From Candidatus Latescibacterota bacterium (GTDB taxonomy: Bacteria > Latescibacterota > UBA2968 > GCA-2709665), in contig OZ250150.1 in assembly GCA_965237675.1 (NCBI GenBank), forward strand, positions 4,704,001-4,768,000: 64,000 bases of DNA. The letters are read 5' to 3'. The translations under genes were made by a program, and so were the position numbers. Every line of letters starts with the position of its first letter. Position 1 is the first letter of the stretch. This document shows, piece by piece, positions 469 through 56,603 of this stretch. The notes beneath the pieces were generated by a model. It did not search any database and was not told where the DNA came from. It saw nothing but the letters and a program-made list of their open reading frames with translations.

Positions 469-810
469 TTAGTTTCCATCCATCTGCTGTGAGAGATCCA
501 CCAGAAGCTGCAACTCTGTCACCGACCCTCGGACCCATGTGTCCCTCTTGAAATTCTGGTGATATGCATCTATTCCGAACAATGACTCTTTTGCTACCTG
601 CTGTGCACGTTCGATATCCTCTGATCGCATGTAGGATAGCAGGTAGTCCTCGCCATTCAGGGAAAGAAGAAACCAGGACTCGACCTTTACCCCTTCGGTG
701 CGCAATGTGGATAGCGCTTCATCTCTTCGACGGTTGATACCGCTTGTCCACTCCGACACCCGGTCGCGCGAGTCTTCCTTAAGTTCTATCAGATAGGCCT
801 TAACGTCCAT
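469..810 (-). CDS. Small hypothetical protein (DUF6176-like)
   Basis: ORF MDVKAYLIELK...EGVKVESWFL...IDAYHQNFK. Confidence 0.6.
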   Translation of the reverse strand: MDVKAYLIELKEDSRDRVSEWTSGINRRRDEALSTLRTEGVKVESWFLLSLNGEDYLLSYMRSEDIERAQQVAKESLFGIDAYHQNFKRDTWVRGSVTELQLLVDLSQQMDGN

Positions 811-850
811 GGTCAACCCCTGTCGGCAATTCATACCATTTCGCATTTTA

Positions 851-903
851 CATATAACAACCAGGCTTCCTGAAGCGGCCGAAGCCGCAGTCCGTCGTTG
901 TGG
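851..903 (-). other. Degenerate attC-like site
   Basis: CATATAAC...GGCCGAAGCCGCAGTCCGTCGTTGTGG; shortened version of the consensus. Confidence 0.5.
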
Positions 904-924
904 CGGTCGTTCGCACGCAGACTT

Positions 925-1896
925 CTATTCGAGAAGCTTCACAACTGTTCTTCGGTCCCAGCCGCCTGGCGCCGGACCCTGGTATGCGGCGAGGATGTCC
1001 AACACCCTTGCCAGGGAGTGGAGTTTTAGAACCAACTCTTGCTCCACACTCAACATTCCATAAGCCCGCCAGAAACATTCAGATATTTCTGGTGTCGTGA
1101 GGAATACGCTAAGATAAAGATCCCTGGAGTCGGTAAATGCCGGAGCAATTTTGGCTTTTCCGAAATCGAGAACCGCCACCAGATTCAAGGTTTCCGGATC
1201 TACACGAAGATTATGCAACTGAAAGTCATGATGGACAAGGGCATCAACTTCCGCGGCTCCGAGAGAATCGGCCAGGTCGGTCCAGAGCGCAACGCAGCGA
1301 TCGAGGGTGTCATTCCCCAGCCAGCCTTGCTTCCGGAGAAGCCCGATAGCCCGTTCGAATCTGTTCTCCTCCGACTTCCGCCACTCGTTTCCGCTCATCG
1401 GGTCGCCGAGAATGGCGGCGGTATACGGCCCCAGAGGAATGGAGTGAAGGGCACGCAAATGACTCGCGCATTGAATAAGAATCTTCTCCTTGTCTTCGAC
1501 GTCTATCTCGCTCCAAACCCGGTCCCCATCGACGCCAGCCACGTACTCAATCAGAGCATGAGGATACGGGACAATGGCGTCACCCGATGAGACGTAGACC
1601 CAGGGTGGCGTCGGCACCGTAGATTCACGTTGGACCCATCTGACAACCCCTTCTTCCCTTCGCATCACGTCGTCGTCCGAGCATCTGACCCAAATCTTCA
1701 AAATCAGCAAGTCACGACCGGGCAACTCCAGCAAGAAGATGGCGTTCACTTCACCTCGCCTCAGCCGACGGATCGAGGTCGGTTTTGGGAGACCGGCTTT
1801 TGAACAAATCGCCTGCGCGATTGGGAGCGAAACATCATAGTTGACGAATTCCTGGTAGGTCAGGAGTGGCTTAGGGGCAGTCATCGGGTTCTTCAT
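925..1896 (-). CDS. Aminoglycoside phosphotransferase (APH/choline kinase) family protein
   Basis: LVHHDFQLHN and AVLDFG motifs. Confidence 0.8.
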   Translation of the reverse strand: MKNPMTAPKPLLTYQEFVNYDVSLPIAQAICSKAGLPKPTSIRRLRRGEVNAIFLLELPGRDLLILKIWVRCSDDDVMRREEGVVRWVQRESTVPTPPWVYVSSGDAIVPYPHALIEYVAGVDGDRVWSEIDVEDKEKILIQCASHLRALHSIPLGPYTAAILGDPMSGNEWRKSEENRFERAIGLLRKQGWLGNDTLDRCVALWTDLADSLGAAEVDALVHHDFQLHNLRVDPETLNLVAVLDFGKAKIAPAFTDSRDLYLSVFLTTPEISECFWRAYGMLSVEQELVLKLHSLARVLDILAAYQGPAPGGWDRRTVVKLLE

Positions 1897-2629
1897 CTGA
1901 TTCTTCGGGCGCGCTTCTGGATTCGACTATCTTTAGCAGATGGCTTGCAAGAATAACCATCTCAGCCGCTTCCTCAGCGCCTAAGAAGACGTTTCGATGG
2001 CTATGCGGATTCTTGTATAAGCCAATGGCTCCAGCAAACAAGCTTGAAAGGGCTTCACGTTCTGGGTTTTGTAGTTTTACATCGCGTAGTCGTCCAGACG
2101 TGTGGTGGAACGCATTGCGCATCAGTTTTGTCCCAATATCATTCTCTGAATACCCACCGCGCTTGCGTACAGCGATCTCAACCTCTTTAAAGGCATTAAA
2201 GACGGCCGTGTCGTACACGCCTCGTCTGAAGGAAGGCATCGAAGCCTGCGCAACATTCGGATGCAACATCCTTCTCGGAAGTAAGTCAGTACGTCTGTAA
2301 GCCGTATAGTCCGCGTGACTCTTGAAGCTCTTACCGCGGCGTGTAACGAAGAACCAGCCTTCCTCACTGCCGGGTTTAGGCGCCAACAGTCCCTCACGTT
2401 CCAGCCAGACCCATCCTTCCATCAGGACTTTCTTAATCTCATCGTCGTTGCATCCTGGAGAGTATTCCTCGATCCAGTGCGCGAGGCTGAAATTGTAGCG
2501 ACTCAACCCTTCGGTTTCCCTAGGATCTAGCGAGTTCAGATGTTCGAGGATAACGCCGCCAACTTCCTCCGGTTCCATCGATAGCAGGAGTTCTGGATCT
2601 GGAACAATATCGGGAATAGACTTGCTCAT
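1871..2629 (-). CDS. TIGR02391-like protein
   Basis: LHP...AVFNAFKEVE...IGTKLMRNAF...LFAGAIGLYKNPHSH signature. Confidence 0.75.
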   Translation of the reverse strand: MSKSIPDIVPDPELLLSMEPEEVGGVILEHLNSLDPRETEGLSRYNFSLAHWIEEYSPGCNDDEIKKVLMEGWVWLEREGLLAPKPGSEEGWFFVTRRGKSFKSHADYTAYRRTDLLPRRMLHPNVAQASMPSFRRGVYDTAVFNAFKEVEIAVRKRGGYSENDIGTKLMRNAFHHTSGRLRDVKLQNPEREALSSLFAGAIGLYKNPHSHRNVFLGAEEAAEMVILASHLLKIVESRSAPEESDEEPDDCP

Positions 2630-2708
2630 AGTCGCGGACCCCTACCGTTAGAGTGGCGTCTTGCGATTCTGGGTTCGAATCGACATCCACTCTTGATTTA
2701 GTGCTATC

Positions 2709-3614
2709 CTACAGCCTAATGTTCTTTGTTCTTAACTTCATTGATTGGATGGTATCGAACTGTTTGAGCGCTTCCCTCTTCCCTCGTTCACAAGATTGAT
2801 TAATGAGATCAAAAACGAGAGTTTGGATTCTTTCGTTTGTTTTCTGTACAAGGCCTTTGGCGAAGTCAGTATGATTCTGAAAGTTGTCTGAATCGGCGAC
2901 AATCATGACGAGTCGATCAAGATTCACCGTAGTGCTTCGCTTCATGGAGTAGTACGAATTGCGGTATTCATTGTCAAAGACTTGGACCCAATCGTCATTT
3001 GGTGAATGGCTCAGGACGAATTCTAGGTAATATGCTGCTGGGAAGTCTGGGGCTTTTCTGAAAGCGTTGTCATCGACTGATTGGATTGAGATTTCTGGGA
3101 ACTTAGATTTCTCTCTTTGCTTACGTGCATCCCACTCAATCTCGATCGCTTTTCGGGCACTTTTCCTAATCAGATCCCTCTCAGCGAGCCATTCAGAAGC
3201 CTCTTGGATGGATCCGTGAGCGACAGGCAAACGCGAACTGGAAATCAACTGACATGCTTCGTGTAGCTCATCTCTAAGCTTGGATTCGACGACATCTGGC
3301 CCTACGTCTGGCAGCGAATTTCGAATCTCATCCAGATTTTGAAGAACTCTTTTTTCGATCTCGTTGCTCTCCTTCAATTGTTCCTTATATAGCCTGATCT
3401 GATCTGGCGTGAATTCCTTATGGCGATGATAGCGGTGTTGATGGCAATTTGGACAGAGGACAATGAGATTCTCAGGCTCATCCGAACCGCCCTCCGCTCG
3501 TTCAACTATATGGTGAATCTCAAAGCATTTCTCTGCGCAGATTGTGCACCTATGACGCGCTTCTACGAGTAACCGGTCTCGTATTGACTTCGCTATTGAC
3601 ATAACAAAACTCAT
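2709..3614 (-). CDS. HNH endonuclease domain protein
   Basis: CTIC...EIHHI...GG...NLIVLCPNCH. Confidence 0.85.
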   Translation of the reverse strand: MSFVMSIAKSIRDRLLVEARHRCTICAEKCFEIHHIVERAEGGSDEPENLIVLCPNCHQHRYHRHKEFTPDQIRLYKEQLKESNEIEKRVLQNLDEIRNSLPDVGPDVVESKLRDELHEACQLISSSRLPVAHGSIQEASEWLAERDLIRKSARKAIEIEWDARKQREKSKFPEISIQSVDDNAFRKAPDFPAAYYLEFVLSHSPNDDWVQVFDNEYRNSYYSMKRSTTVNLDRLVMIVADSDNFQNHTDFAKGLVQKTNERIQTLVFDLINQSCERGKREALKQFDTIQSMKLRTKNIRL

Positions 3615-3710
3615 CCTCGCGTGAATTGAACTGATTTGTGATCAAGACACAGTACATTTCTCGGAATTTGGGATTGTTATGCAAAGATCCAGATCTGTTT
3701 TTTTCTTTTT

Positions 3711-4533: not shown

Positions 4534-4565
4534 GTGTCCCTCACGATATATTTGGAATCGATATC

Positions 4566-4650
4566 AGGTAACATCCTAGGCACCCGCAGGCCGTGTAGGC
4601 GTTTGCGCATCGAGGCGAAAGCCCCGTAGCCGTGGGTGCTGGTGTTACCT
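4566..4650 (-). other. attC-like site
   Basis: AGGTAAC...GCACCC...GGGTGC...GTTACCT. Confidence 0.8.
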
Positions 4651-4694
4651 GCCGTGTACGCTTAACGGATTTGGAGCCTGTGAGGACGAAGGGG

Positions 4695-5979: not shown

Positions 5980-6015
5980 TGGAGTGGGGGTTAGAGAAAC
6001 CCTTGCCTCACATGT

Positions 6016-6062
6016 CCGATAAAATTCTCGGCACCCCCGAAGCCGGAGGCGCCGTGTTAACC
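6016..6062 (-). other. Short attC-like site
   Basis: CCGATAAA...CGGCACC...GGCGCCG-TGTTAACC. Confidence 0.6.
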
Positions 6063-6123
6063 GATGTGGAGGTCTGCCGGATCATCGTAGAGTTCAAGAG
6101 GCAATGATCGCCCCCTGATTTTT

Positions 6124-7819: not shown

Positions 7820-9633
7820 GAGTCCACTCCGAAAAGTCGAGTTTACTTATTGAGGAAAAAGTACTAAATTTCAAGGTGAGAAGAGGTTTCAAAGTTGCGG
7901 ACGTATAAAGGAAAAAGCGAGGGTATAGAATCAATGTATAAGAGAAGCGCGTCATGCAGCCAACCGGATCTGTTTTCGGGCTTCGAGTCGCATTTCAAGA
8001 GGCGCAAGCAGGACCAGTTGAATGATCCGAAGTCGTGGCATAATCTGTTTTACCAGCACGTCACGTCAAAGATAGAAGAGGATGTGTTTTCGGTGTTGTT
8101 TGATCCCAACCAAGGCCGCCCCAATGCGCCGATTCGTCACCTGGTGTCGATGATGATCTTGAAGGAGGGCTTTGGGTGGAGCGATGCCCAACTATTCGAG
8201 CATTGTCGGTTCAACATCCTGGTGATGCGGGCATTGGGGTTGATGAATCTATGCGATGAAGTGCCTGCGGAGTCCACGTATTATTTGTTCAAGCAGGCCT
8301 TGTATGCGGATCAACTCGAAGCCGGTCGAGATCTGATTGGAGAGACCTTTTCCAGCTTGACACAGACGCAGGCCAACGCCTTTGGTGTATTAGGTCAGCA
8401 CATCCGAATGGACAGTAAGTTGATCGGCTCTAACATTGCCCTGTGTTGTCGGTTGCAGTTGGTGGTGCGTTGCTTACAAGGGTTCTGGGGGTCGCTGGAC
8501 AAGGCCCAAAAGCGACGATCATCGGCAAAAAATCAGCAGGTTTTGGACGGATTGCTGAAGGTGAAGGCGCATCAGGTTGTCTATGGTCTCACCCGCGCTG
8601 AAAAGTGTGAGAAGCTGCAGGAATGCGGGCAGTTATTGAGCAGGCTTCAAGCGACCTATACCGACGAAGACAGCGGTCACTACGGTCTGATCGTGCGTGT
8701 TATGGGGGATCAATATACCGTTTTATCGTCCTCCAAACAGGTGCTTCCGAAGCCTCCTAAAGAGATCTCCTCATCCTCCTTGCAGTCTGCCGATGATGAA
8801 GATGCGACCTTTCGCAGGAAAGGGAAGGACAAGGTGAAAGGATACAGTGTCAACCTCACCGAGACCTGTGGTGAGGACGGCCTCAATTTGATCACGGACG
8901 TTGACGTCAAACCGGCGACGACGCCCGACAATGCGTTTGTACAAGCGGCCATCGAGCGGACGCAACAGGTCGTGGGTGACGCCTTGGAAGTGTCAATGGA
9001 TGGGGCCTATAATGATCAATCCAACGCCGAGTATGCAAAAGAACAGGACAAGCAATTCTATTACAGTGGCCTGCAAGGAACCCCAGGACGTTTCATTTAT
9101 GAACGCACAGAAGATGGCGTCACCGTCATCGATCAACAAACCGGAGAGGTTCACATAGCCCAAGAATACAAACCGGGAAAATACAAAATCATCATGGATG
9201 GCAAACCCCGATACTTTAAAGAACAGCACATCGACAATTACCTCAAACGCAAACAGATTGAAGCCCTGCCTGACCACATCAGAAACCGACGCAATAACGT
9301 CGAAGCCAGCATCTTTCAGTTGAGCTACTACACCAAAGATGGCAAGACGCGCTATCGCGGACTGAGGCCACACCAATTGTGGGCGCACTGTCGCGGCTTA
9401 TGGGTCAACCTCGTTCGGATCAAGAACTACCTCGCAACACCTCCGATGCTCCCCGCATAAGGGGGGGTTTCTTGCAAAAACCTCCATACCATAGGCCCTG
9501 AGCAACTTCGTAGGTTGCCCCTGAGTTGATTTGCCGCACCTACACGTTATATCGTCGCCACACGCTAAATCACAATACCCAACCCTGACCACTTACATCA
9601 GGCCTTTATAACCCCCGTTTTCGGAGGGGACTC
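7820..9633 (+). mobile_element. Insertion sequence (DDE; IS5/IS1182-like, family uncertain)
   Basis: TIRs GAGTCCACTCCGAAAA / TTTTCGGAGGGGACTC enclosing a transposase. Confidence 0.85.
7934..9460 (+). CDS. DDE transposase with DUF772-like N-terminus
   Basis: GRP..P.....MMILKE..GWSD; RMDSK; MDGAY; RNNVEA. Confidence 0.85.
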   Translation: MYKRSASCSQPDLFSGFESHFKRRKQDQLNDPKSWHNLFYQHVTSKIEEDVFSVLFDPNQGRPNAPIRHLVSMMILKEGFGWSDAQLFEHCRFNILVMRALGLMNLCDEVPAESTYYLFKQALYADQLEAGRDLIGETFSSLTQTQANAFGVLGQHIRMDSKLIGSNIALCCRLQLVVRCLQGFWGSLDKAQKRRSSAKNQQVLDGLLKVKAHQVVYGLTRAEKCEKLQECGQLLSRLQATYTDEDSGHYGLIVRVMGDQYTVLSSSKQVLPKPPKEISSSSLQSADDEDATFRRKGKDKVKGYSVNLTETCGEDGLNLITDVDVKPATTPDNAFVQAAIERTQQVVGDALEVSMDGAYNDQSNAEYAKEQDKQFYYSGLQGTPGRFIYERTEDGVTVIDQQTGEVHIAQEYKPGKYKIIMDGKPRYFKEQHIDNYLKRKQIEALPDHIRNRRNNVEASIFQLSYYTKDGKTRYRGLRPHQLWAHCRGLWVNLVRIKNYLATPPMLPA

Positions 9634-9639
9634 AAGTTT

Positions 9640-9834
9640 GAGTCCACTCCGAAAAGTGAGATTCGCGTGATTTTCTTCCAATTTGGATCAGGAACGGCCA
9701 TTTTCAACAAAAGCTATATCCCCATAAATCATTATATATCATAGTGTTATATCAAGTATGATTTTGATTTACTTCTGAGTGAAACACCAACTTGGACCTC
9801 GTCAGAGTGGATTTTGACTTTTCGGAGGAGACTC
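9640..9834. mobile_element. 195-bp MITE with the same TIRs as the adjacent IS
   Basis: GAGTCCACTCCGAAAAGT...ACTTTTCGGAGGAGACTC; outer 6-bp TSD AACGTT at 7814-7819 and 9835-9840. Confidence 0.85.
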
Positions 9835-10055
9835 AACGTTAGCTCTTTGGCGCCATCCATTGGGGGTTCCGGTTTGCTGAAGAATCCAGTGCAGATTGTT
9901 CGAAGGTAGTCTTTCTCGACCTTCACTCCAAATTCCGTCAGTGACTCACGGATGGAGTCAAACCACTCTTCCCAGGCCATCTTCATGTCCCCGTAAACAA
10001 GGATCGTACCATAAAGGTCAAAGAAAAGACCACTAAATCTGTGCGTTTTCATGTT

Positions 10056-13664: not shown

Positions 13665-13731
13665 ACTGGTCTCCGATTCACGCTTTGCACGCAATGACAA
13701 AGAGGAAGAGAATTTCTTCGCGGCAATTCTC

Positions 13732-13831
13732 AGCCAATGTCTCACCTGTTGCCGAACTCGCGAAGCGAGTTGGCGAAGGCCAAGGCGCCCTTCGGCAGGC
13801 TCAGGGCCGCAGCGGGAACGAGGTGCCAAAC
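13732..13831 (-). other. Degenerate attC-like site
   Basis: AGCCAAT...AACTCGCGAAGCGAGTT...; arms match the neighbouring cassette ends. Confidence 0.6.
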
Positions 13832-13904
13832 GACGTGGGATACGATCTCCCCTCAAGCTGTATCTTGAACCAAATTCCTATTGCTGTCCCACTTCATGCG
13901 CTAG

Positions 13905-17621: not shown

Positions 17622-17834
17622 TCACAGAAGCTTACGAAATTCTTCAGTGGTTAATCCGGCATCCCTAACAATTCCTCCCATTGTAAAGGCATTCACAGGG
17701 TTGTTTCGTGGAACAGTCAGAATTCGTACTCCATCCGTCATAATGATATGCTTGCCCTGGCGTGCAATGCGAAACCCCGCTTTCTCAAAAGCTCGCACGG
17801 CATTCAAATGGCTGACACCTGGAATTTTTGGCAT
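17622..17834 (-). CDS. hicA: HicA-family toxin
   Basis: KAGF...RQGKHIIM...TVP...GIVRDAGL. Confidence 0.85.
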   Translation of the reverse strand: MPKIPGVSHLNAVRAFEKAGFRIARQGKHIIMTDGVRILTVPRNNPVNAFTMGGIVRDAGLTTEEFRKLL

Positions 17835-17835
17835 C

Positions 17836-18033
17836 CTATACCGTCAACTCGATCTCTCGTATCTCCGCGCCATCTAACAGATCGTCAACGACAGTAAGAT
17901 ATTCACGAATTGCTGTTTCGATGTTTGCAACCGCCTCATCTTCCGTGTTTCCTTGTGACCAACAACCTGGCAAGCCAGGCACCGAAACGCTAAAGCCTTC
18001 GTCGGATTTATGAAGGGCAACTTTGTACCTCAT
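17836..18033 (-). CDS. hicB: HicB-family antitoxin (short form)
   Basis: VPGLPGCWSQGNTEDEAVANIETAI. Confidence 0.9.
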   Translation of the reverse strand: MRYKVALHKSDEGFSVSVPGLPGCWSQGNTEDEAVANIETAIREYLTVVDDLLDGAEIREIELTV

Positions 18034-18124
18034 TGGGTCCTCCATGCGGTTGTTAATTCGGGTGTTTGATAACAAACCTTGTTATCTTGATTTGCAGGCC
18101 GATACTGTGATTTTGGTCTCTTCA

Positions 18125-20321: not shown

Positions 20322-20400
20322 GTCGTTATTAATTCGTATCCGTTCATTGTCGGGGCCTTATGTATCAAAATGTAGCCGCTAACTCATTCAGGCAGACTTC

Positions 20401-41084: not shown

Positions 41085-42550
41085 ATGCAGTCAAGTTTTG
41101 ACCTTTTCAGAGCTGCCTCCGAAGGTGACCCGACGAAGCGGCATGCCGCGTTTGAGTGTCTGGTACGTCAGTTTCAAGACCTGGCATACGGATGCGCGTA
41201 CGGGATTTGGGTAATTTTCATCTCGCTCAGGACGCTTCACAGGATGCGTTCCTTACCGCGTACACCGAGCTCGGAAAACTGGAAGCTCCCGAGGCGTTTC
41301 CCGGATGGTTTAAACGAACTGTGATACGGAAGGCACTCCGCCTTAGCCAGACTCGCCGTTTCGTGTTCGAGCCGATTGAGGTAGCATTGAGCGTTTCCAC
41401 AGACGGTCCGGACCAGATGGAACAGATAGAGACTCAGGAAACGCAGTCGTTGGTTCACGCGGCTATCGAGGCTCTCCCTGAGCACGAGCGGAGTGTCACG
41501 GTACTGTTCTAATTGACTGAATACTCTCAAAAGAAGATCGCCGAATTCTTGGACCTGTCGCTGCCAACGGTGAAGTAACGGCTACAGAGGTCCCGGAAGC
41601 GGCTTGAGGAAAGGATAATAAGGATGGTGGATGATACGCTTGAGGGCCATCGGCCTTCCAGAGACGATAGATTCGCCAACGAGGTGGTGGAGATAATTCG
41701 GGCGACAGAAGCGGGCGATCTTTCCAAACTCGCAGCTCTCCTGGCCCGCAACCCAGGTCTAGTCGATTCTAATGCACCTCTGTCAGACTCGTATCCCGTA
41801 CAGGCAAGGGGCTGGAAACCTTTGCATATAGCAGCTTGGCACGGTCATACAAAGGCCGTTGAGTTTCTCCTTGAACAAGGAGCGAAAATTGACGCTCCGT
41901 GCGGATCGAACCGGACACCGCTCCATTACGCAATCGAAGCGGGAAGTCAGGAAACCCGGCAACTACTGTTAGATAAGGGGGCAGATGTCGACATTACGAT
42001 TGCGTCCATACTAGGTATGACGGACCGAGTGAAGGACTTGCTTGCAAAAGATCCCAAACTGGCGAATGACAGTTCCAAGGGGCATACTCCGTTGGAGTGG
42101 GCTGCTTGGGGCGGGAGAGTTGATGTAGCCCGGATTCTGTTGGAACACGGAGCCAAGATTCGAGGAGAGGCCATATTCATCCCAGCGGCCAACGGAAGTG
42201 TGACGTTCCTCCGCTTTCTATTGGATCATGGCGCAGACCCCAATGCCCGATCCGGAGGTCGAAATGACGCTCCTCAGTTTGACCATACCGTGCTCCACGC
42301 GGCTGTCAGGATGCCATTCACCAGCGACAACACAGGAGTGATAGAGCTACTGATAGAGCGCGGTGCGGACGTGAATGCGTTGGACGAAGCGGGTAGGACG
42401 CCTTTGGATCGCGCGCTCGAGAAGGGGGCCGATGGGCCGTATACCGCAAATCCCCATGAAACATCGAATGAGCAGAAGGAATACGACAAGATCATCGCTC
42501 TGTTTGGTAAACACGGAGGGAAGACAAGCGAAGAGCCTCTATCGGCTTAG
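41085..42550 (+). pseudogene. ECF sigma-70 factor fused to ankyrin repeats; sigma part disrupted (ankyrin ORF 41624-42550 intact)
   Basis: AQDASQDAFL, FPGWF, IAEFL...TVK motifs; frameshift near 41205 and stops at 41510 and 41576; TPLH ankyrin repeats. Confidence 0.85.
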
Positions 42551-43882: not shown

Positions 43883-44152
43883 CTACAGAAAAAAGAAACT
43901 TCCCACACAGGCCGTAACTTTGACAATACTGTAGAGAAATTCAGGTGCGAAGTCGGCTTCATTCTTCCACATTATCGTATGTAGGTCAGGGTGAACTCGG
44001 AATTTCTTGAATTCCTCTTTATCCTTCAACGACTCAAAAACGGGACCCCATAGTTCATCTTTCAACTCTACCTCTCCCTCCACACCATCACTGAATTTGA
44101 GCCAGATCACATAGTCGCCTACATAGTGAGCTTCAATAACACGGGGTATCAT
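43883..44152 (-). CDS. DUF2442 protein (stop mutated, 8 aa longer than copy 2)
   Basis: GPVFE.L...W.NEADFAPE. Confidence 0.85.
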   Translation of the reverse strand: MIPRVIEAHYVGDYVIWLKFSDGVEGEVELKDELWGPVFESLKDKEEFKKFRVHPDLHTIMWKNEADFAPEFLYSIVKVTACVGSFFFL

Positions 44153-44156
44153 CTTC

Positions 44157-44414
44157 TCACTCCAAGGGTGCAATTTTATTCAACGGACGACGCTGGTCTG
44201 CGCGTTCCCAATTCTCCATCAGTTCTCTTTGGTGCAGATCATACCATTCCAGAACATGCCTCAGAGCCCGTCTAGGAAATTGGCCTGTCACAACGCCTGT
44301 CTCAATATCGACCGTGATGTCATATTCACCGTATGTGGCGTGAAAATGGGGTGGTCCGTGCTCACGATAAAACATACCAATCACGATCCCAAGAAAACGA
44401 CTAATCTCCGGCAT
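44157..44414 (-). CDS. DUF4160 protein (putative toxin)
   Basis: MPEISRFLGI...EHGPPHFHA...EL.ENW. Confidence 0.9.
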   Translation of the reverse strand: MPEISRFLGIVIGMFYREHGPPHFHATYGEYDITVDIETGVVTGQFPRRALRHVLEWYDLHQRELMENWERADQRRPLNKIAPLE

Positions 44415-47646: not shown

Positions 47647-47733
47647 CGGTTTACACCTCAGGTGAAATGCTGGATCGACGTGTATCAGCGATTCTTTGCT
47701 TTTGGCGGCCAGGGATGGCCGCTCTGTCTTTGT

Positions 47734-48964
47734 GCCGCTTTCGGTTAACGGTTCTTGGCTTTACGACGTGGGCCAGTCCCAAAGGCCCATGTGCCCGCAG
47801 GGCCGAGGGGCGGATGCCCCGAAGCGTAAAGCCGGTGTTAGCCGTCGTTATTAATTCGTATCCGTTCATTGTCGGGGCCTTATGTATCAAAATGTAGCCG
47901 CTAACTCATTCAGACAGACTTCTCATTCACCAAAAAACGGGTACGGCTCGCCGGCTTCCACCAGCCTTTGTACCAGACTCGAGTACTTCAACACCTCCGT
48001 CAGCCGGGTGCGCCAATGCGGGGCGTAGAAGCCGACGAATTCCTGGAAGAACGCTCGCGCATCCTCACTGACGCCATCGAAGTATTGCGGCAGCAAAAAC
48101 CATGGCTGGTCACTGGCGTAGTTCAGCCCCCGCTGGCGCATCGTGAACTCTGCGGCGGCCCGTTTTTTTACCGAGATCATCAACGAGCGCCTGAGCTTGT
48201 CGGTGTGATAGCGGCCCCGATGAATGCACAACTGGGTAAACAGCACCGCGTCACCGGGTTCCTGGTGGAGACGAACGGCGCCAGGCATATCGTTCGAGCG
48301 GTTGTGGATCCCATCATCGGCGACGCAGATCGCGTGCTCTTCGGGGGAGTAGTCACGCAGGTGAGACCCCGGCACCACTTCGAGATCGTCGGTAGGGACC
48401 AATGCGATTTGCATCTGCAACCCGGCTCCGGTCTCCGGTCTCCGGGATACGTCTGCTTCTGCACCGATCTTGTCCTTGTGCCAAAATCCGTCCTGGCTTT
48501 CTCCGGTCGGATTACAGTAGAGACTGCTCAAGGCGAAGAGGAATTCTTCATCCAAGGCTGCGCTCAGCGATTCGACAACTTGGGGCGACCCCATGGCATT
48601 GAGCAGAAAGGCGAGATCGTCGGGGTGATCGCGGTGATATTCCGGGTCGTTCAGGTGCCTCATGTAATTGGCCTGGGGCCCCACCGGTGGATTGTCACAG
48701 CGAGGAGCGCGCCGCCACTGTTCCAGCACTCGCTCACAGATCTCGCGCAGCCGTTTTGTCGTCGCTGCGTCGAACAAACCGCGCACCACGGCGTAAGAGT
48801 GTTGGCGTAGCTGCCCAGGGCAGGGTTCAGTAGCAATACTCATTATATCCTCTTGTGTTGCTGTAAGAATTGCGTCGCAATTGGACTGTAAAAGTGCGGA
48901 CAGGCTGTCTCGTGCTGTCTAACTACGTATGGAAATCAATGCTCTATTAATTGCGGCTAACGTT
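47734..48964. repeat. Duplicate of the cassette at 20212-21442 (attC-like site + PhyH gene)
   Basis: Near identity, offset 27522. Confidence 0.95.
47923..48843 (-). CDS. PhyH-family dioxygenase, copy 2
   Basis: Protein identical to 20401-21321. Confidence 0.85.
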   Translation of the reverse strand: MSIATEPCPGQLRQHSYAVVRGLFDAATTKRLREICERVLEQWRRAPRCDNPPVGPQANYMRHLNDPEYHRDHPDDLAFLLNAMGSPQVVESLSAALDEEFLFALSSLYCNPTGESQDGFWHKDKIGAEADVSRRPETGAGLQMQIALVPTDDLEVVPGSHLRDYSPEEHAICVADDGIHNRSNDMPGAVRLHQEPGDAVLFTQLCIHRGRYHTDKLRRSLMISVKKRAAAEFTMRQRGLNYASDQPWFLLPQYFDGVSEDARAFFQEFVGFYAPHWRTRLTEVLKYSSLVQRLVEAGEPYPFFGE

Positions 48965-49065: not shown

Positions 49066-49155
49066 GCCGGTGCTTCGGTTCTTTGCCTCAAAAAGCCTTT
49101 CCATCACTTCCAAGCATCCACTCCAATTATCCCTGAATCTTTCGTGGACTTCTAG

Positions 49156-50843
49156 CCTGAATAATTCACAAAAAAGGTAGTTTCCATACCCAAGTCATTG
49201 TATTATATTATGGTTACGCAAATAACCTAATAACAATGAAACAGGAGGAAACTACCGTGGGAGTTCAAGATAAACATCACAGGTTGTCTTTCGCAAGTCT
49301 TTCTGGTAGGCAGGTAGAAGCCACGTTCGACGGGGGCGTGCTGACGACCGACGTCGGGGTGATGCTGCTTCGTGAGGTCGAGGCCAATGTCGGCATTTTG
49401 CATCGGATGGTTGCGGCGCTCACCGATCATCGACATCAAAGTTACGTACATCATTCGATGATGGACCTGATCAAACAACGTGTCTTTCAGATGGCCTGTG
49501 GGTATGAGGATGCGAATGATTGCAAGACGTTACGCGAGGACCCCGGCTTCAAGGCGGCCTGTGATCGGTTGCCGTTGTCTGGCGCGGACCTGGCCAGTCA
49601 GCCCACGATGAGTCGGTTCGAGAACCGCATCAGCAGAACCGATTTGTATCGGATCGCCAAGGCCTTTGCGGATGTGTTTGTCGCCTCGTATGAGGAACCG
49701 CCGGAAGCCATTCTGTTGGACATCGATGACACCGAAGACAAGGTGCATGGGTCTCAACAGTTGTCGTTGTTCAATGCGTATTTCAATGGCTATTGCTACC
49801 AGCCCCTGCATATCTATGAAGGCCAAACCGGCAAGTTGATCACGACGGTCTTGCGTCCTGGCAGGCGGCCTGCGGGTAAAGAGATCGTCACCATCCTCAA
49901 ACGGGTGATCGCCTACCTGCGTAAAGCCTGGCCCGACGTGGAGATCCTGTTACGTGGCGATGCGCATTTTTCGTGTCCGGAAGTGCACGTGTTGTGTGAG
50001 GAAGAAGATGTGTATTTTGTCCTCGGACAGAACGGCAACGCCAAACTCCTGCGGAAGGCACAGTCCTTGATAGACCAGGCCAAAACGCGGTATGCCGATT
50101 CCGGAGAAACCGTGCGCCTTTATCGCTGTTGGGCCTATCAGGCCGGCACCTGGGCGTGTCCACAACGCATCGTCTGCAAGGCGGAAGTGACACCGCAAGG
50201 TGTCAATATCCGATTCGTGGTCACCAACCTGAAGCGCGCCCAACCGTCATTCATCTACAAAACCGCCTATTGCACACGCGGCAGGATGGAAAACTTCATC
50301 AAAAATCACAAGACCTTTCTCCATTCCGATCGCACCTCTTGTCACACCTTCCAGGCCAATCACTTCCGTCTCTTTCTCCACAGCGCCGCCTATGTCCTGA
50401 TGCACAGCCTGGCTGCAATCGGATTGCGCGGCACGAAGTGGACCAACGCACAGTTCAATACCCTGCAAAATCGTCTCTTGAAAGTCGCCGGGCGCGTTTG
50501 TGAGTTGAAAACTAAAATCAAGTTCCATCTGCCAACGGCGTTTCCACTCAAACACCTTTATGGCAAGATCCTCTATAATCTGGCAACGGGTGTTCCATAA
50601 CCCATCGACGTGCTGACCCCGCCTTCACATTTGCATCGACCACCACCAAAGGTCATGGAGAAGTCTGTGCGCTTGACACGGGCATCGAGGTCAACCTGAC
50701 GTCACGAGGCAAAGCAGGCGCCGCCCAAACGGCTTGAACACGCCAAATCCGTCACAGCCCATGCGCTTTCGTTTCTTGTCTCACTCGGAAGCTCTTTCTG
50801 CTTCCTTAAAATGCTCTATCTGACGATTCATGAATTAATCGGG
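49156..50843 (+). mobile_element. IS1380-family element, copy 3 (transposase 49236-50600)
   Basis: Same IRs; TSD CTAG; protein identical to copy 1. Confidence 0.92.
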
Positions 50844-51079: not shown

Positions 51080-53353
51080 TCAGAACTCAGCGGCAATCAT
51101 CGCGTACTGTCCAATGTTCGTTAATATGGTTTCCAAGTGGTTTCCGTCGAACGTGACCTCCAGGTCATCTCCCGTGCAAACGTCCCACACGCGACGAGGA
51201 GTGCCCCGCTCCGTGAGCTGCCAGCGCAGGTTCACTTCGGGTATCGTGGTCACATAGTCAAACTGTGGGCTGAAGCGCGGCCAGATCCCCGGCAGATGCT
51301 CGACGCGCTCGCCGGTGTGATTGATCAGAAACAACACTTGGCTTCCCGGTTTCTCATTCGGAATCATCACGAGTTGGTTCGGGCCATCGGTCATCAGAGG
51401 CCGGCCCTCCGGGTAGAGCCAATCCACCACGGCGCCCAGAAGATCGCGGACCACCAGCAGGCGATATTCGAAATGAAGCTCCTCCACCGGCGCGGCCAGA
51501 TAGACGACGCGGCCCTTGCCAACCGTCCGGCAGGTGACGGCGGGACACAGAGCGTCGTCCTCGCGCCCGCCGAAGACGATGTTCGCCACCACGTCGGTTC
51601 CCGGCCGCGCTTGGACGAACTCGAACCGATTGAGCGGCCACAGCTCATGCGAGCACCCCTCGGCCAGCCATTGACCTGGAACGCAGCAGCCGTACGTGTC
51701 GAACGTCCCGGCGGCCCAGAGGTGTTGTTCGTAATCAGCGAATTGGTCGGGGTTCGGGTCCACGCGGTCCACGCCCAGAAGGTCCGCCAAGGCGAAGTTG
51801 TCGCGCATCTCATCGGGCTCGGCACCGTACAGGCTCGTCCGGTACGTCGCCAGGAGCCGCCCGCCCGCCTTCACATATTCCGTGATGCCTTCGACTTCCT
51901 CCCGCGTGAGATGGCCGACGTTGGGCAGAAGCAGAACGGGATACTTTGCCAACGCCGCTGGATCGGAGAGAACCCGCTCCTCGATCACCGATGTCGGCAA
52001 ATGGTTGGCCAGCATGGTCGAGAAGGCCCCGCGACGGCAGGATTGCTGCGGGGGCGTGCGCACGAGATAGCCCGCCTCGGAGAGCGGGGCCTCGAGCTCC
52101 CCCGGACGGTCGGCGAGGTCCTGCTTGGACTGGCCGATGACATCGTGCCGACGATCGCGCATCACCAGGGGCTCGGCGCGGAACCGCACCCGCTCGAGCA
52201 TCTCATACACCCGCACCGGCAAAACAAACGGAATAGCAACAAACGGTGACGGGTGGAGATCTTCGAAGAGTGATTCGTTCCTCTCCAGGATCTCAAGGAA
52301 CTCCGCCAGCTCACGATTGGCTTTATGGGGAGGCGACAGCCAAAGGTTCACGCCGCACGCCACCAGGACGGCCCCTCCGGAAGCAAAGCTGGCTGCCGCC
52401 TCCTCGACGAGTTCCATGCCGAAGCACTGCGCCCGCGACCAGCCCGTCAAGGCGCCGACGTATTGCCACATGGCCCAACCCGACGACTCGGCCAGACTGG
52501 CCGCCTCGAGCCGATGAAGGAAGTCGCCCCCGGCCTCGTAGAGGAATCCATCGTGCACCTCCACGATCCTGCGTTCGGGCCAGTCGCCCACACCCTGGCC
52601 GTGCGTCAGCACCGGGATGTCCTTCTTCTTTCGCGTCGCGGCGACGAATTCGAGAAAGACATCGCCGACGATCCTGCCGTACTGCAGGCTCCACTCTTCC
52701 AGCATCTCCTGGTCTTCCCGAGGCAGGCTGTGCGGATCGGGTGCATACGGCATTGGGCAGCCGAATTGCCTCTCGAACTTCTCGAGGCAATAGTCGCAGT
52801 AGCACAAGGGCGACTGCGGGGTGTGGTGCGAATGGTAAGGACAGGCAGAATCGGTGTAGATCGCGTCGACGTCGTGGTCCACCACTTGTGCGATGAAAGC
52901 GCAGATGGCCTCTCGGTACGGTGTGTTGAAGCAGACGTGCCGGTGAAATCCGCCGCCGTGGTGCCTCAGGACAGGAGCGTCGCCTTCGGGGCTGGGGCGG
53001 TACATCCACTCCGGATGATGGATCAGCATGTTGTCTTCGGGAATAATGTGCCCCACGGGAATGTACCCGATGACGCGCACGTCCCGCGCATGGGCCTCGG
53101 CGATGGTCTCGGCGAGCAGGTCGCGCTCACTTAATTGAGGGTGCGGGGGAAAGAACTCATTGGGGAAGACCGCCCATTTGCCCGCGCTGCCGAACCAAAT
53201 GGCGTTGGCGTGGTATTTCCGCACGACATCGACGAGCTGCTTCGCGTCAAAGTCGATGTCGGGCCAGAAGGGCGGGTGGTATTGCTCTATCTGAAAGGTG
53301 CGCGCCCGCCGTACCCACTCGTGACTTGGCTTGATCATAGCGATGACCTCCAA
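51080..53353 (-). CDS. Putative glycoside hydrolase (GHL6/GH42-like TIM barrel + trimerisation domain)
   Basis: FDA...; RDLLAE.I.EAH; HPEW; CFNTPY; CYCDYC...F; YV..GG.LLAT..TS. Confidence 0.7.
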   Translation of the reverse strand: MEVIAMIKPSHEWVRRARTFQIEQYHPPFWPDIDFDAKQLVDVVRKYHANAIWFGSAGKWAVFPNEFFPPHPQLSERDLLAETIAEAHARDVRVIGYIPVGHIIPEDNMLIHHPEWMYRPSPEGDAPVLRHHGGGFHRHVCFNTPYREAICAFIAQVVDHDVDAIYTDSACPYHSHHTPQSPLCYCDYCLEKFERQFGCPMPYAPDPHSLPREDQEMLEEWSLQYGRIVGDVFLEFVAATRKKKDIPVLTHGQGVGDWPERRIVEVHDGFLYEAGGDFLHRLEAASLAESSGWAMWQYVGALTGWSRAQCFGMELVEEAAASFASGGAVLVACGVNLWLSPPHKANRELAEFLEILERNESLFEDLHPSPFVAIPFVLPVRVYEMLERVRFRAEPLVMRDRRHDVIGQSKQDLADRPGELEAPLSEAGYLVRTPPQQSCRRGAFSTMLANHLPTSVIEERVLSDPAALAKYPVLLLPNVGHLTREEVEGITEYVKAGGRLLATYRTSLYGAEPDEMRDNFALADLLGVDRVDPNPDQFADYEQHLWAAGTFDTYGCCVPGQWLAEGCSHELWPLNRFEFVQARPGTDVVANIVFGGREDDALCPAVTCRTVGKGRVVYLAAPVEELHFEYRLLVVRDLLGAVVDWLYPEGRPLMTDGPNQLVMIPNEKPGSQVLFLINHTGERVEHLPGIWPRFSPQFDYVTTIPEVNLRWQLTERGTPRRVWDVCTGDDLEVTFDGNHLETILTNIGQYAMIAAEF

Positions 53354-53700: not shown

Positions 53701-53834
53701 TGCTAACTACGGGATTACCGAACAGTTACGGTAATGCGTACCTGATCCGAAGATCTGCGAACGTTCGGGAACATCCCACTTTGAAGCTTGTAGCCCGAAC
53801 ATGTTCAGGAATGCTTCCTATGGTGGCATCGTCT
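53701..53834 (-). other. attI-like platform site, copy 2
   Basis: GCTAAC 128 bp 3' of the recombinase stop; same palindrome. Confidence 0.78.
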
Positions 53835-54836
53835 CTAACCAAAAACTGCCCCCCTTTCTTCCATCAATGCATCCAGCGGGCTCTGGATTTTCGCGAGATC
53901 CCGATTCGTCACCCGAGTATAGATCTGTGTGGTTTTTGGGCTTGCATGCCCCAGCAACACCTGGATATATCGCAGGTCGGTCCCGCGTTCAAGCAGGTGT
54001 GTCGCAAAGGAATGCCGTAGCGTATGTATCGATATCCGCTTGTTAATATTGGCTTTCTTGCAAGCCCGGTCAAATGCTTTCTGAACTGATCGCTCGGTCA
54101 AATGCCGTCCCGGCCTTGCGCCCGGGAACAACCATGTTTCGGGTGGATATTGGCGCCTGTAGTCTTGAACCGCCTTCTGTGCGACCGCGGAGAGCATTGT
54201 GTAGCGATCCTTCCGGTGCTTGCCCTGACGAACATGAACCAGCTTTCGGTCCAGGTCGATGTCTTCGACCTTTAGCCGGACCACTTCACCCAATCGGAGG
54301 CCTCCGGAATAGGTCAACAGAATGATCGCCCGATGCTTCAGGTTTTCTACCGCATCCAGTAACCGAAGCACTTCGGGCCGGCTCAACACAGTGGGCAATT
54401 TGTGCTCTTTTTTCGGACGGGGCAGGTTTTCAAGCGGATGCTGATCTTTCAACACTCGAAGGAACAGGAATTTCAATGCACTTACGCACTGATTGACGTA
54501 ACTGTGCGAGGCTCCCGTTTCAAGGAGGTGATACACGTAATTTCGGACCTCCATCTCCCCAAAAGATCGAGGTGCCTTGCGGCAATAATTGGCAAATCGT
54601 CTGACGTGACCAAGGTACGCTTTTCGCGTTTTCGCGCGATACCCCCTGGGTTGTCTCACTCTATATTGGCACGTAGGGAAGGCCGGTTGTTCATCTGCCA
54701 TAAGCATTCGCGCATCGGTAACTGAGCGCATTCGGGGGCTGAAAAGCTTAAAGAGAATCCCCACAAAAACGGGAGCAAGAATGAGCAAAGCAATCACTAC
54801 AATTGAAGGATCGGGAACCATCGAATTCCCTTGCAA
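53835..54836 (-). CDS. Tyrosine recombinase (SAM-like N-domain + catalytic domain), no IntI I2 insert; true start uncertain
   Basis: [32 protein letters not shown]; family similarity begins near RGYRAKT (about 54650). Confidence 0.92.
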   Translation of the reverse strand: MQGNSMVPDPSIVVIALLILAPVFVGILFKLFSPRMRSVTDARMLMADEQPAFPTCQYRVRQPRGYRAKTRKAYLGHVRRFANYCRKAPRSFGEMEVRNYVYHLLETGASHSYVNQCVSALKFLFLRVLKDQHPLENLPRPKKEHKLPTVLSRPEVLRLLDAVENLKHRAIILLTYSGGLRLGEVVRLKVEDIDLDRKLVHVRQGKHRKDRYTMLSAVAQKAVQDYRRQYPPETWLFPGARPGRHLTERSVQKAFDRACKKANINKRISIHTLRHSFATHLLERGTDLRYIQVLLGHASPKTTQIYTRVTNRDLAKIQSPLDALMEERGAVFG

Positions 54837-55310: not shown

Positions 55311-55513
55311 CGTCGCGCTGAACTTTAATACATCTAGGATCGTCGTCTAGAGGGTAAAGCCATAACGGGGCCGACATAACCTTCTTTTGGCTTTCTTGAT
55401 TTTGACCTCCAAAAACTTCCAAGATAAAATAAATCGGCGGTATTAAGTCAAACCGCCGAGGTGGAGAGTTACTTTTTCTTCTCTATGAGCTACAGAAAAA
55501 AGAAACTTCCCAC

Positions 55514-55759
55514 TCAGGCCGTAACTTTGACAATACTGTAGAGAAATTCAGGTGCGAAGTCGGCTTCATTCTCCCACATTATCGTATGTAGGTCAGGGTG
55601 AACTCGGAATTTCTTGAATTCCTCTTTATCCTTCAACGACTCAAAAACGGGACCCCATAGTTCATCTTTCAACTCTACCTCTCCCTCCACACCATCACTG
55701 AATTTGAGCCAGATCACATAGTCGCCTACATAGTGAGCTTCAATCACACGGGGTATCAT
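55514..55759 (-). CDS. DUF2442 protein, copy 2
   Basis: Near-identical to 43883-44152. Confidence 0.85.
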   Translation of the reverse strand: MIPRVIEAHYVGDYVIWLKFSDGVEGEVELKDELWGPVFESLKDKEEFKKFRVHPDLHTIMWENEADFAPEFLYSIVKVTA

Positions 55760-55763
55760 CTTC

Positions 55764-56021
55764 TCACTCCAAGGGTGCAATTTTATTCAACGGACGACGC
55801 TGCTCTGCGCGTTCCCAATTCTCCATCAGTTCTCTTTGGTGCAGATCATACCATTCCAGAACATGCCTCAGAGCCCGTCTAGGAAATTGGCCTGTCACAA
55901 CGCCTGTCTCAATATCGACCGTGATGTCATATTCACCGTATGTGGCGTGAAAATGGGGTGGTCCGTGCTCACGATAAAACATACCAATCACGATCCCAAG
56001 AAATCGACTAATCTCCGGCAT
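55764..56021 (-). CDS. DUF4160 protein, copy 2
   Basis: 1 aa difference from 44157-44414. Confidence 0.9.
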   Translation of the reverse strand: MPEISRFLGIVIGMFYREHGPPHFHATYGEYDITVDIETGVVTGQFPRRALRHVLEWYDLHQRELMENWERAEQRRPLNKIAPLE

Positions 56022-56143
56022 AATTATATTTTACAATAATTTATAGGAAAATGCAACTACTTAATGACTTGCGCTTCAGGGTAGGGCTGGGGTTGTCTTT
56101 TGCCCCCTTTTCGATAAGGAATCAGACAAAAAAACCGCATGGC

Positions 56144-56278
56144 GGCTAACTAAGGTATTACCGAACAGTTACGGTAATACGTAACAGATCTGAGAATCTC
56201 CGAACGTTCGGGAACATCCCACCTTGAAGCTTGCAGCCCGAACATGTTCAGAAATGCTGTCCTATGGTGGCATCGTCT
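56144..56278 (-). other. attI-like platform site, copy 3
   Basis: GCTAACTAAGGTATTACCGAACAGTTACGGTAATAC. Confidence 0.75.
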
Positions 56279-56520
56279 CTAATCAATACCTGCCTCCCTT
56301 TCATCCATCAATGCATCCAGCGGACTCCGGATCTTTGCGAGATCCCGATTCGTCACCCGAGTATAGATCTGTGTGGTCTTTGGGCTTACGTGCCCGAGCA
56401 ACACCTGGATATATCGCAGGTCCGTCCCGCGTTCAAGCAGGTGTGTCGCAAAGGAATGCCGTAGCGTGTGTATCGATATCCGCTTGTTAATATTGGCTTT
56501 TCTCGAAATCCGGTCAATCG
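56279..56520 (-). pseudogene. 3' fragment of the tyrosine recombinase
   Basis: [23 protein letters not shown]...SPLDALM. Confidence 0.9.
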
Positions 56521-56603
56521 TTTTCTGTACCAACTGCTCGTTGAATTGTCTCTCCAGCCTCGCGCCGAAACGTCAACCGGCGGTCACTCTTACCGCGCCA
56601 ACA

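Follow-up and report, generated by a model that had tools for sequence, protein, structure and literature searches.

Integrons are defined, and have been searched for, by an integrase (IntI) that carries one particular insertion, the additional domain. The standard survey, the 2016 IntegronFinder paper, counted 50 recombinases that lack the IntI domain but lie close to an attC site; of these 50, 21 were in genomes without IntI and four fell between IntI and Xer in its tree, each with fewer than three attC sites. Such enzymes were judged not to be IntI, and recombinases without the insertion were, in the available text of that paper, explicitly set aside (PMC4889954). Integrons whose integrase gene is co-oriented with the cassettes are already known from the same source and from a 2022 preprint on archaeal integrons, which, as far as its available text goes, stresses the additional domain as defining and places attI downstream of intI. 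The literature that we searched, supplements excluded, held no description of a family of insertion-less recombinases heading hairpin arrays. Here we analyse a chromosomal array of gene cassettes and attC-like hairpins, together with the tyrosine recombinase gene that accompanies it, in a stretch of 64,000 nucleotides (the window) from a Candidatus Latescibacterota bacterium. On the evidence of genome comparison, the locus is probably a sedentary chromosomal cassette array built on the integron principle and run by an IntI-related enzyme without the IntI insertion, and it looks like an undescribed branch of the integron idea.

The window is G000:C1:4704001-4768000, where G000 is the source genome, a metagenome-assembled genome of 5.61 Mb in three contigs (completeness 99.93%, estimated contamination 8%). 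Comparisons were made with 41 relatives and with 151 genomes sampled across Latescibacterota, and matches to the IntI profile were counted over 168 genomes of the phylum. The first-pass annotation, made from the letters of the window alone, had proposed a non-canonical integron-like system served by a recombinase without the IntI signature. Its outline held, namely the sites, their orientation, the recombinase and the site 3' of it, whereas its counts and its placing of duplications at AAC boundaries held in part and its inclusion of 469-3700 found no support.

Hairpin sites of the array

A covariance model (R1) was built from eight hand-picked sites and a second model (R2) was rebuilt from the 24 matches of R1; with filters off, a search of the window with R2 gave 24 hairpins at E<=0.0004 and three marginal ones (E 0.011-0.21). 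Every one of them is on the + strand, the first starting at 3710 (marginal) or 4564 (solid) and the last ending at 49068, and the - strand of the window gave no R2 match at E<=1. The sites, with their R2 scores, are as follows.

4564-4653, + strand, attC-like hairpin, 66.1 bits
7155-7246, + strand, attC-like hairpin, 49.9 bits
10054-10148, + strand, attC-like hairpin, 47.2 bits
11683-11770, + strand, attC-like hairpin, 43.0 bits
12394-12544, + strand, attC-like hairpin, 36.8 bits
14803-14901, + strand, attC-like hairpin, 42.5 bits
15879-15969, + strand, attC-like hairpin, 56.3 bits
16943-17017, + strand, attC-like hairpin, 28.2 bits
17511-17612, + strand, attC-like hairpin, 42.1 bits
18123-18209, + strand, attC-like hairpin, 77.7 bits
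20219-20324, + strand, attC-like hairpin, 51.2 bits
21431-21519, + strand, attC-like hairpin, 97.2 bits
22470-22562, + strand, attC-like hairpin, 84.9 bits
23188-23344, + strand, attC-like hairpin, 41.9 bits
29008-29095, + strand, attC-like hairpin, 53.6 bits
36744-36845, + strand, attC-like hairpin, 51.6 bits
40439-40547, + strand, attC-like hairpin, 43.1 bits
40741-40898, + strand, attC-like hairpin, 52.8 bits
42617-42704, + strand, attC-like hairpin, 83.6 bits
43632-43726, + strand, attC-like hairpin, 66.3 bits
44535-44682, + strand, attC-like hairpin, 62.7 bits
45389-45469, + strand, attC-like hairpin, 47.4 bits
47741-47846, + strand, attC-like hairpin, copy of the 20219 site, 51.2 bits
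48953-49068, + strand, attC-like hairpin, 58.6 bits
3710-3799, + strand, marginal hairpin candidate, 16.3 bits, E 0.21
6015-6065, + strand, marginal hairpin candidate, 19.5 bits, E 0.039
13730-13834, + strand, marginal hairpin candidate, 21.9 bits, E 0.011

The 'about 30 sites' counted previously are made up of 24-27 hairpins and three attI-like sites (see below); the array start that had been placed at 469 has to be moved, since 469-3700 holds no match to the hairpin model and nothing supports an array left of 3710. The array extends over roughly 50 kb of the chromosome. Between the sites lie unrelated, mostly co-oriented genes, as had been described; counted from ORF tables, about 23 of the 26 intervals between sites have their main open reading frame (ORF) on the - strand.

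In the consensus fold a TAAC/GTTA box forms the outer end, the 5' arm carries four unpaired bases and the 3' arm one bulged base, and there are an 11-bp stem and a branched tip. Compensatory changes were found in 11 of the 11 pairs of the L-stem, with none of 500 shuffles reaching the observed score, and in 22 of 29 pairs overall; 84.7% of cells were paired in the alignment, which, being fitted to the model, makes the pair counts lean towards that model. In a slid-partner control, pairing dropped to 33-39%. Imperfect palindromes with AAC..GTT boxes and asymmetric unpaired bases, the marks of the attC arrays of IntI integrons, were found at the 24 + 3 sites, and this anatomy is real and far beyond chance. 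No Rfam family reached its gathering score in the window, a generic inverted-repeat finder missed the hairpins because the sites carry bulges, and three crude hairpin scans were too noisy or insensitive, the last recovering 4 of the 24 sites.

The attC site of aadA1 in plasmid R100 served as a control for polarity. Its ORF-sense strand has the extra bases on the R''-L'' arm and its bottom strand has them on the 3' arm, while the + strand of the window sites begins with AAC at its 5' end, has the longer spacer on the 5' side and is bulged on its 3' arm. These features match the aadA1 bottom strand, so that the + strand would be the analogue of the bottom strand and the - strand that of the top; the polarity agrees both with the direction of the cassette ORFs and with the G|TT junction on the - strand described below. 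We had taken the strand with the longer 5' arm to be the top strand, an assignment that was dropped after the aadA1 control, which showed that the features to compare are the 3'-arm bulge and the greater length of the 5' spacer. Judged by these features the array is canonical in its internal logic, and only the gene orientation and the enzyme differ.

The recombinase gene, the attI-like sites and their junctions

The window contains a single recombinase gene, co-oriented with the cassettes as reported by the first-pass annotation, and two 3' fragments besides; each is joined to a copy of a conserved block of ~135 nucleotides (nt).

53835-54836, - strand, tyrosine recombinase ORF, 333 amino acids, TTG start (Pfam Phage_integrase and SAM_4)
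27917-28168, - strand, recombinase 3' fragment 1, family residues 291-376, with one TAG stop
56282-56566, - strand, recombinase 3' fragment 3, family residues 282-376
53702-53834, - strand, attI-like site 2, conserved ~135 nt from the stop codon of the recombinase to the G|TTAGC junction, with GCTAAC at 53702-53707 of the + strand
27781-27917, - strand, attI-like site 1, inside the array, 97% identical to site 2
56145-56282, - strand, attI-like site 3, at the array end beside the chromosomal flank, 90% identical to site 2
51080-53353, - strand, first cassette behind attI-like site 2, encoding a 757-residue GHL6-type glycosyl hydrolase (Pfam)

In the three copies the homology starts exactly at GCTAAC (27781, 53702 and 56145), which bears out the suggestion of a conserved site 3' of the recombinase where cassettes abut; two of the three sites are attached to only a 3' stump of the gene. 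The site contains three palindromes of the CGAAC..GTTCG type and is not itself a long hairpin. On the gene strand the block ends in ...AG|TTA and is followed by unrelated DNA, with 13 distinct junctions among 15 copies from several genomes; two more loci in G000 bring the total to 15 distinct junctions for loci of the window's layout (type A, in which the hairpins lie on the 3' side of the gene and on the opposite strand), and the junction copies of G000 to five. The bases after GTT vary (AGC, ATG, ATA, ACA, GGA, ACG, AAG and AAC), as would be expected if they arrive with each cassette. Of the two extra G000 copies, that at C1:1412981 lies just to the right of a second cluster, of five hairpins, and that at C1:4611078 to the right of a lone hairpin, each with a junction of its own, so that all three hairpin clusters of G000 end in an attI-like site on the same side.

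Loci of a second layout (type B, with the hairpins on the 5' side of the gene and on the same strand) have a conserved block of ~265 nt 5' of the gene, which ends in CGAAC-N6-GTTCG-N9/10-CAGTTA| before unrelated DNA at four of five aligned loci; the block of G103 ends differently, and G016, read alone, has a similar AGTTA core. The type B core is visibly of the same kind as that of type A. An attI-type site that adjoins the integrase gene and joins at G|TT, as in integrons, was thus found at 15 type A and four type B junctions. Furthermore, one homologous cassette (78.7% identity over 712 nt) is the first behind both the type A site of G000 at C1:1.41 Mb and the type B site of G105, a genome from a different family of the phylum; it spans C1:1412284-1412994 in G000 and 10723-11431 in L159, bounded by the junction and the first hairpin. 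The junction evidence extends past what the earlier reading of the window had seen.

A block that ends sharply before variable DNA also resembles the end of a mobile element, and the truncated recombinase-plus-site at 27781-28168 lies inside the array with hairpins on both sides. An alternative is therefore that the recombinase and the attI-like site form a mobile unit, derived from or related to IS91, that uses the GTT/AAC sites for its own movement and lands in or near arrays, neither building nor feeding them. We regard this as unlikely: the junction keeps the G|TT register of a cassette boundary, the homologous cassette comes first behind both types of attI-like site, and in G000, G008 and G012 the outermost recombinase copy abuts the same chromosomal flank, which argues for a sedentary platform. 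The relatives that make this alternative worth considering are discussed with the enzyme family below.

In L075, a contig of a metagenome-assembled genome labelled Gemmatimonadota, we found the attI-like site three times (~90% nucleotide identity), along with four hairpins arranged as in type A and the stump of a recombinase 3' end; this represents either transfer between phyla or a mis-binned contig.

Association of recombinase and hairpins across Latescibacterota

The co-occurrence of recombinase clade and hairpin type across genomes, which had been put forward as a check, was found, the two being physically linked in a fixed orientation: R-type hairpins lie in the searched flank of 20 of the 25 recombinase loci that could be evaluated, 14 of these 20 being type A and six type B, and the layouts are internally consistent.

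Type A, hairpins on the 3' side, opposite strand: G000, G012, G008, G015, G003, G038, G017:3442702, G090, G101:C1, G097, G098, G088, G111, G110
Type B, hairpins on the 5' side, same strand, in the divergent layout of classical integrons: G016, G106, G102, G105, G101:C2, G103
At contig ends and not evaluable: G120, G150, G153, G070, G054, G081

The type B genes form one clade (99% support). Of the 41 relatives, 27 have hairpins, 10 have a recombinase match (E<=1e-40) and two have IntI; among the 151 genomes of the phylum, hairpins were found in 59 and the recombinase in 29, with hairpins in 20 of the 29 genomes with the recombinase against 39 of the 122 without it. Related genomes are not independent in these counts, and G088, which was counted as a miss genome-wide, yielded three hairpins when searched locally.

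Many hairpin clusters have no recombinase nearby, the window recombinase is truncated (see below) and canonical IntI over the cut-off of its profile (TIGR02249) occurs in 17 of the 168 genomes. These observations would suit an ordinary integrase-less attC cluster (CALIN), built by a canonical IntI that was lost or acts in trans from other cells or plasmids, with the Xer-like recombinase as a decaying bystander. A canonical IntI elsewhere in the genome had been named as a refuting condition, and no IntI or IntI pseudogene over the cut-off was found in the whole of G000; the 14 genomes of the genus, of which 13 carry hairpins, likewise gave none over the cut-off. In 240,935 bases around the IntI genes of G079, G097, G098, G157, G150, G163, G017 and G043 there was one hairpin match, ~18.6 kb from the G017 gene. 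G097 and G098 possess both IntI and the recombinase, yet their arrays adjoin the recombinase (>20 hairpins on G097:C2) and, among the hairpins listed, the nearest to IntI is tens of kb away; G079 and G157, which have IntI and no such recombinase, have no hairpin of the R type, the four evenly spaced crude-scan candidates beside the G079 IntI being unverified. A bystander would in addition explain neither so exact a junction nor the constant orientation nor the match between the two attI-like cores, and we consider an ordinary CALIN improbable.

Xer recombinases use folded single-stranded phage sites. The hairpins might accordingly be recombined by host enzymes of the XerC/XerD type, with the neighbouring recombinase irrelevant, given that G000 has two full-length Xer-like genes and that hairpin clusters persist without the special recombinase. 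Xer genes are universal, however, and yet the hairpin type tracks the special recombinase and the attI-like site; no dif-like core was seen, although no search was aimed at dif. It seems very improbable that host Xer enzymes account for the array.

The recombinase family and its IS91-linked relatives

The IntI signature is indeed absent from the window recombinase. TIGR02249, the NCBIfam model of IntI, gave 214 bits against a cut-off of 265, in two stretches between which model positions 175-234 were skipped, and when aligned all family members have 66 residues between the beta-hairpin motif and HxLRH, compared with 107 in IntI1. Among solved structures, the Vibrio integrase IntI4 matched best; its 151 bits fall in two stretches with a gap of ~42 residues between them, IntI4 residues 171-237 (67 residues) facing 25 residues of the window recombinase. 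XerA was next, at 125 bits. The additional domain of IntI, near patch III, is thus lacking. The equivalog cut-offs of XerC and XerD were not reached (194 and 186 bits against 335 and 330), and the other full-length tyrosine recombinases of G000 are two in number, both Xer-like (C1:1530945 and C1:5369057).

The full-length form of the family has ~376 residues, including an extra N-terminal domain of ~100 residues. P0002, a full-length member that was used as query, just passes the NCBIfam model NF040815, 'XerA / integron integrase' (222.7 bits against a cut-off of 220). The gene is intact, in its 376-residue form, in G088 (L061), and intact type B genes are present in G016 and G102. Relatives at the 50-65% level occur in Dehalococcoidia and Clostridia. 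The N-terminal domain matches no Pfam family and is absent from type B and IS91-linked members; an arm-type DNA-binding role would be a guess. In the type A recombinases this domain (P0002 residues 1-100; L061 9683-9980) includes a conserved stretch in which two tryptophans, W45 and W52 in P0002 numbering, are invariant. A scan of metagenome contigs with P0002 gave 19 loci, none above 38% identity apart from one 33-residue fragment, and these were not used.

In a tree of 50 rows (quick search, SH-aLRT support, three short rows dropped, the XerC/XerD of G000 as two outgroup rows), a single unresolved group takes in the genes of both types, those linked to IS91, further members of the family and the IntI sequences, themselves a monophyletic clade (99%); this group a long branch with 100% support parts from the two Xer genes of G000. 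The tree places the family near IntI and falls short of making it the sister of IntI. The four recombinases described as intermediate between IntI and Xer (Figure S1 of PMC4889954) may or may not belong to this family. The system had been proposed as a separate class. Both conditions named as refuting the proposal came out in its favour, G000 having no canonical IntI and the recombinase clade, unlike the canonical IntI loci of the phylum, being linked to the hairpin type; but 'separate class' overstates the distance, given the grouping with IntI, the best structural match to IntI4 and the existing record of co-oriented IntI integrons.

The idea of a mobile unit draws on relatives 45-51% identical to the window recombinase, which are the first ORF of multi-copy elements of ~2.5 kb belonging to the IS91 family and equipped with a Y2 transposase. 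There are six near-identical copies in G020 (L048-L053) and three in G017 (L054-L056), and five of the six G020 copies have hairpins within ~1.5 kb, in one orientation. The G020 elements, however, lie mostly within hairpin arrays but inside cassettes, away from the crossover points of the hairpins. The transposase (Y2_Tnp, PF04986) is beside the recombinase ORF in the G020 and G017 relatives and is absent from G000, G012 and G016. We had considered the window recombinase as part of an IS91 element, which was rejected for G000 because the genome has no Y2_Tnp. In G017, a canonical IntI gene or a fragment of one precedes two of the IS91-family copies by 419 nt.

Proposed mechanism and its standing

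We infer from these features that the recombinase, an IntI-related enzyme that lacks the ~40-residue IntI insertion and in type A has the N-terminal domain of ~100 residues instead, would bind the double-stranded attI-like site, with its CGAAC..GTTCG inverted repeat and an AGTTA 9-13 nt later, and would recombine it at G|TT with the folded strand of the hairpins, which should be the + strand in the window. The hairpins, with their TAAC/GTTA outer box, 4-nt unpaired stretch, bulged base and covarying stem, would act as folded single strands. New cassettes would then enter beside the recombinase gene and be read in its direction, the attI-like site being 3' of the gene in type A and 5' of the divergent gene in type B; read-through from the recombinase gene into the cassettes is possible in type A.

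A number of observations weigh against this reading. The window recombinase lacks family residues 1-106 (in a tblastn search with P0002 it covers residues 107-373 only, with the break at ~54648, located against G012), and the missing part was found nowhere in G000. The G008 copy has the same truncation and is further broken, and that of G012 keeps the N-terminal part but changes frame, which is either real or an assembly error; an evidently intact copy was found in none of the 14 genomes of the genus. Part of the recombinase family belongs to IS91-type insertion sequences, and the tree, from a quick search, has no more than two outgroup rows and leaves a polytomy unresolved. Five loci have no hairpin in the searched flank (L086, L089, L090, L170 and L174), nor do two fragments of G015 (L068 and L074), whereas hairpins persist in the 39 of 122 genomes without a recombinase match. 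Only two of three internal duplications in the window touch an AAC. The compared genomes, like G000 with its 8% contamination, are assembled from metagenomes. Finally, in IntI the insertion contributes to the recognition of attC structure according to the available text of PMC4889954, and reference 17 of that paper, by its title, holds the domain to be necessary for activity.

The loss of the N-terminal domain and the two stump copies suggest that the array was probably active recently and is now decaying or weakly served; with its 5'-truncated recombinase copy it may even be a relic. Systems of types A and B are probably widespread in Latescibacterota, the window being a large and probably decaying example. 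We tentatively propose, as a wider claim that might well fail, that the hairpin-cassette integrons of Latescibacterota, in both layouts, are run by a whole lineage of IntI-related recombinases that lack the additional domain; the same sites on the Gemmatimonadota-labelled contig L075 hint that the lineage may extend past this phylum.

If this is true, the definition of the integron would widen to take in a family that has an attI-type site of its own and stands, in two architectures, at the head of arrays with up to dozens of hairpin cassettes. The additional domain would be dispensable for the capture of cassettes as folded hairpins, providing a natural test of the purpose of the insertion, and the family would bear on the origins of integrons, since it could be the intermediate, long looked for, that connects recombinases of the Xer or IS91-linked kind with true integron integrases. 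Some of the many attC clusters that lack an integrase would gain a cognate enzyme, and many 'CALINs' of uncultured phyla could have one that current tools discard. It would also offer a second structure-specific recombination system for engineering.

Cassette contents and turnover of the array

The cassette products are mutually unrelated by Pfam and include kinases of the APH family, Kelch, ankyrin, SET, NUDIX and PhyH proteins, a metallo-beta-lactamase-fold protein, a glycosyltransferase, the GHL6 hydrolase and several without a family. The Kelch, ankyrin and SET cassettes give hints, from the domain names, of functions in host interaction; the Kelch repeats lie at 18916-20094 and 31085-32212, and the ankyrin-repeat and SET cassettes within 41624-42550 and 22621-23160. 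Two large ORFs, located by 26112-26851 and 39161-39900 (458 and 437 amino acids, no Pfam family), are 72% identical in DNA over 750 nt and are paralogous cassettes. Toxin-antitoxin-like modules, duplicated segments and insertion sequences are listed below.

17622-18075, - strand, HicA/HicB toxin-antitoxin cassette (Pfam HicA_toxin and HicB_lk_antitox)
29129-29811, - strand, HigB-type toxin and HTH antitoxin-like cassette (Pfam HigB_toxin, 97 bits, and HTH_3)
43883-44414, - strand, DUF4160/DUF2442 small-gene pair, cassette A (Pfam)
55353-56150, - strand, second copy of cassette A, 98.7% identical, its right end being the AAC of attI-like site 3
18835-20140, - strand, Kelch-repeat segment, duplicated at 31004-32309, boundaries not at sites
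20208-21442, - strand, PhyH-family cassette, duplicated at 47730-48964, right boundary at AAC
23937-25631, - strand, IS1380-like insertion sequence (DDE_Tnp_1_4), copy 1, absent from this place in G008 and G012
32323-34018, - strand, IS1380-like insertion sequence, copy 2
49152-50843, + strand, IS1380-like insertion sequence, copy 3, with an empty site in runs X17 and X1
7820-9836, + strand, insertion sequence with DUF772 transposase, segment absent from G008 and G012

Of the six toxin-antitoxin-like modules reported from the letters, four are supported by Pfam (HicA/HicB, HigB/HTH and the two DUF4160/DUF2442 pairs), and two overlapping pairs of small ORFs match no family. Duplication at AAC boundaries applies to one boundary each of the PhyH cassette and cassette A, but not to their other boundaries or to either Kelch boundary. 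The four insertion sequences interrupt the array. The empty site of copy 3 is seen as a 49151->50844 joint in contigs of X17 and X1 (shorter side 255 and 217 letters, 4-base overlap), and the IS1380-like element (DDE_Tnp_1_4) gave 24 BLAST rows genome-wide, most of them 99.9-100% identical; near-identical copies and an empty site in other runs indicate that it has been active recently.

Blocks of the array are 97-99.9% identical among G000, G008 and G012, compared with 86-90% for the adjacent chromosome (56604-64000). The array (18797-49155) being more alike than its flank, it, or large parts of it, has moved between these species since they diverged. The three arrays differ by rearrangements between the repeated units of recombinase stump and attI-like site and by gains of insertion sequences; several breaks of synteny fall at or near the AAC of a site (7151, 12397 and 42626), and others lie inside genes (16462/17766) or reflect insertion-sequence events. 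Contigs of other public runs show a platform arrangement like that of G008. Contig joints with 20-25 letters on the shorter side, among them an apparent site-to-site joint, 40446->42629 in X1, occurred at the level expected from repeats and were not counted; in the X1 case the letters between do not fit a clean AAC exchange. A segment of 424 nt (18373-18796) is absent from the otherwise collinear arrays of G008 and G012 and is not flanked by model matches. In the sponge metagenome run X4, contigs cover parts of the array, including the attI-like site, at 90-95% identity.

Comparison with known systems

XerA, XerC and XerD share the fold family with the recombinase described here, and P0002 lies marginally over the NF040815 cut-off; they differ in that a long, fully supported branch separates them, in that the recombinase is patchy (10 of 41 relatives) where Xer is universal, and in that it is linked to cassette arrays. 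The recombinase ORF1 of IS91-family elements is closer, with 45-51% identity, the same two-domain core and likewise no IntI insertion, but G000 has no Y2/HUH transposase and its gene stands at the fixed chromosomal head of an array rather than in a 2.5-kb multi-copy unit. With a CALIN the window shares the absence of IntI from G000, so that the formal definition applies, although it takes no account of the attached recombinase and attI-like site, and the second and third clusters of G000 have no recombinase gene; a CALIN, however, has no cognate platform, whereas clusters of the window's type finish with a conserved attI-like site and, when genomes are compared, with the gene of one specific recombinase.

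In the reverse integrons of Treponema and others, and in archaeal integrons, the integrase gene points into the array and attI is at its 3' end, as in type A (PMC4889954 and the 2022 preprint, as far as their available texts go). Those integrases carry the IntI additional domain, according to the accessible part of the preprint, whereas the family of the window lacks it and also includes the divergent type B.

Compared with sedentary chromosomal integrons such as the superintegron of Vibrio cholerae, the window differs in its recombinase, which lacks the IntI insertion (66 against 107 residues) and scores below the IntI cut-off, in the extra N-terminal domain of type A without a Pfam family, and in hairpins with a conserved inner stem-loop and branched tip; classical attC sites are less alike in sequence than the hairpins of the window. 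In other respects the two agree: both have tens of promoter-poor, mostly co-oriented cassettes of ~1 kb, separated by AAC/GTT-boxed imperfect palindromes of variable sequence and conserved stem structure with symmetry-breaking unpaired or bulged bases, both have a G|TT junction of the attI type at the head of the array, both contain toxin-antitoxin cassettes and insertion sequences, and the recombinase of the window groups with IntI.

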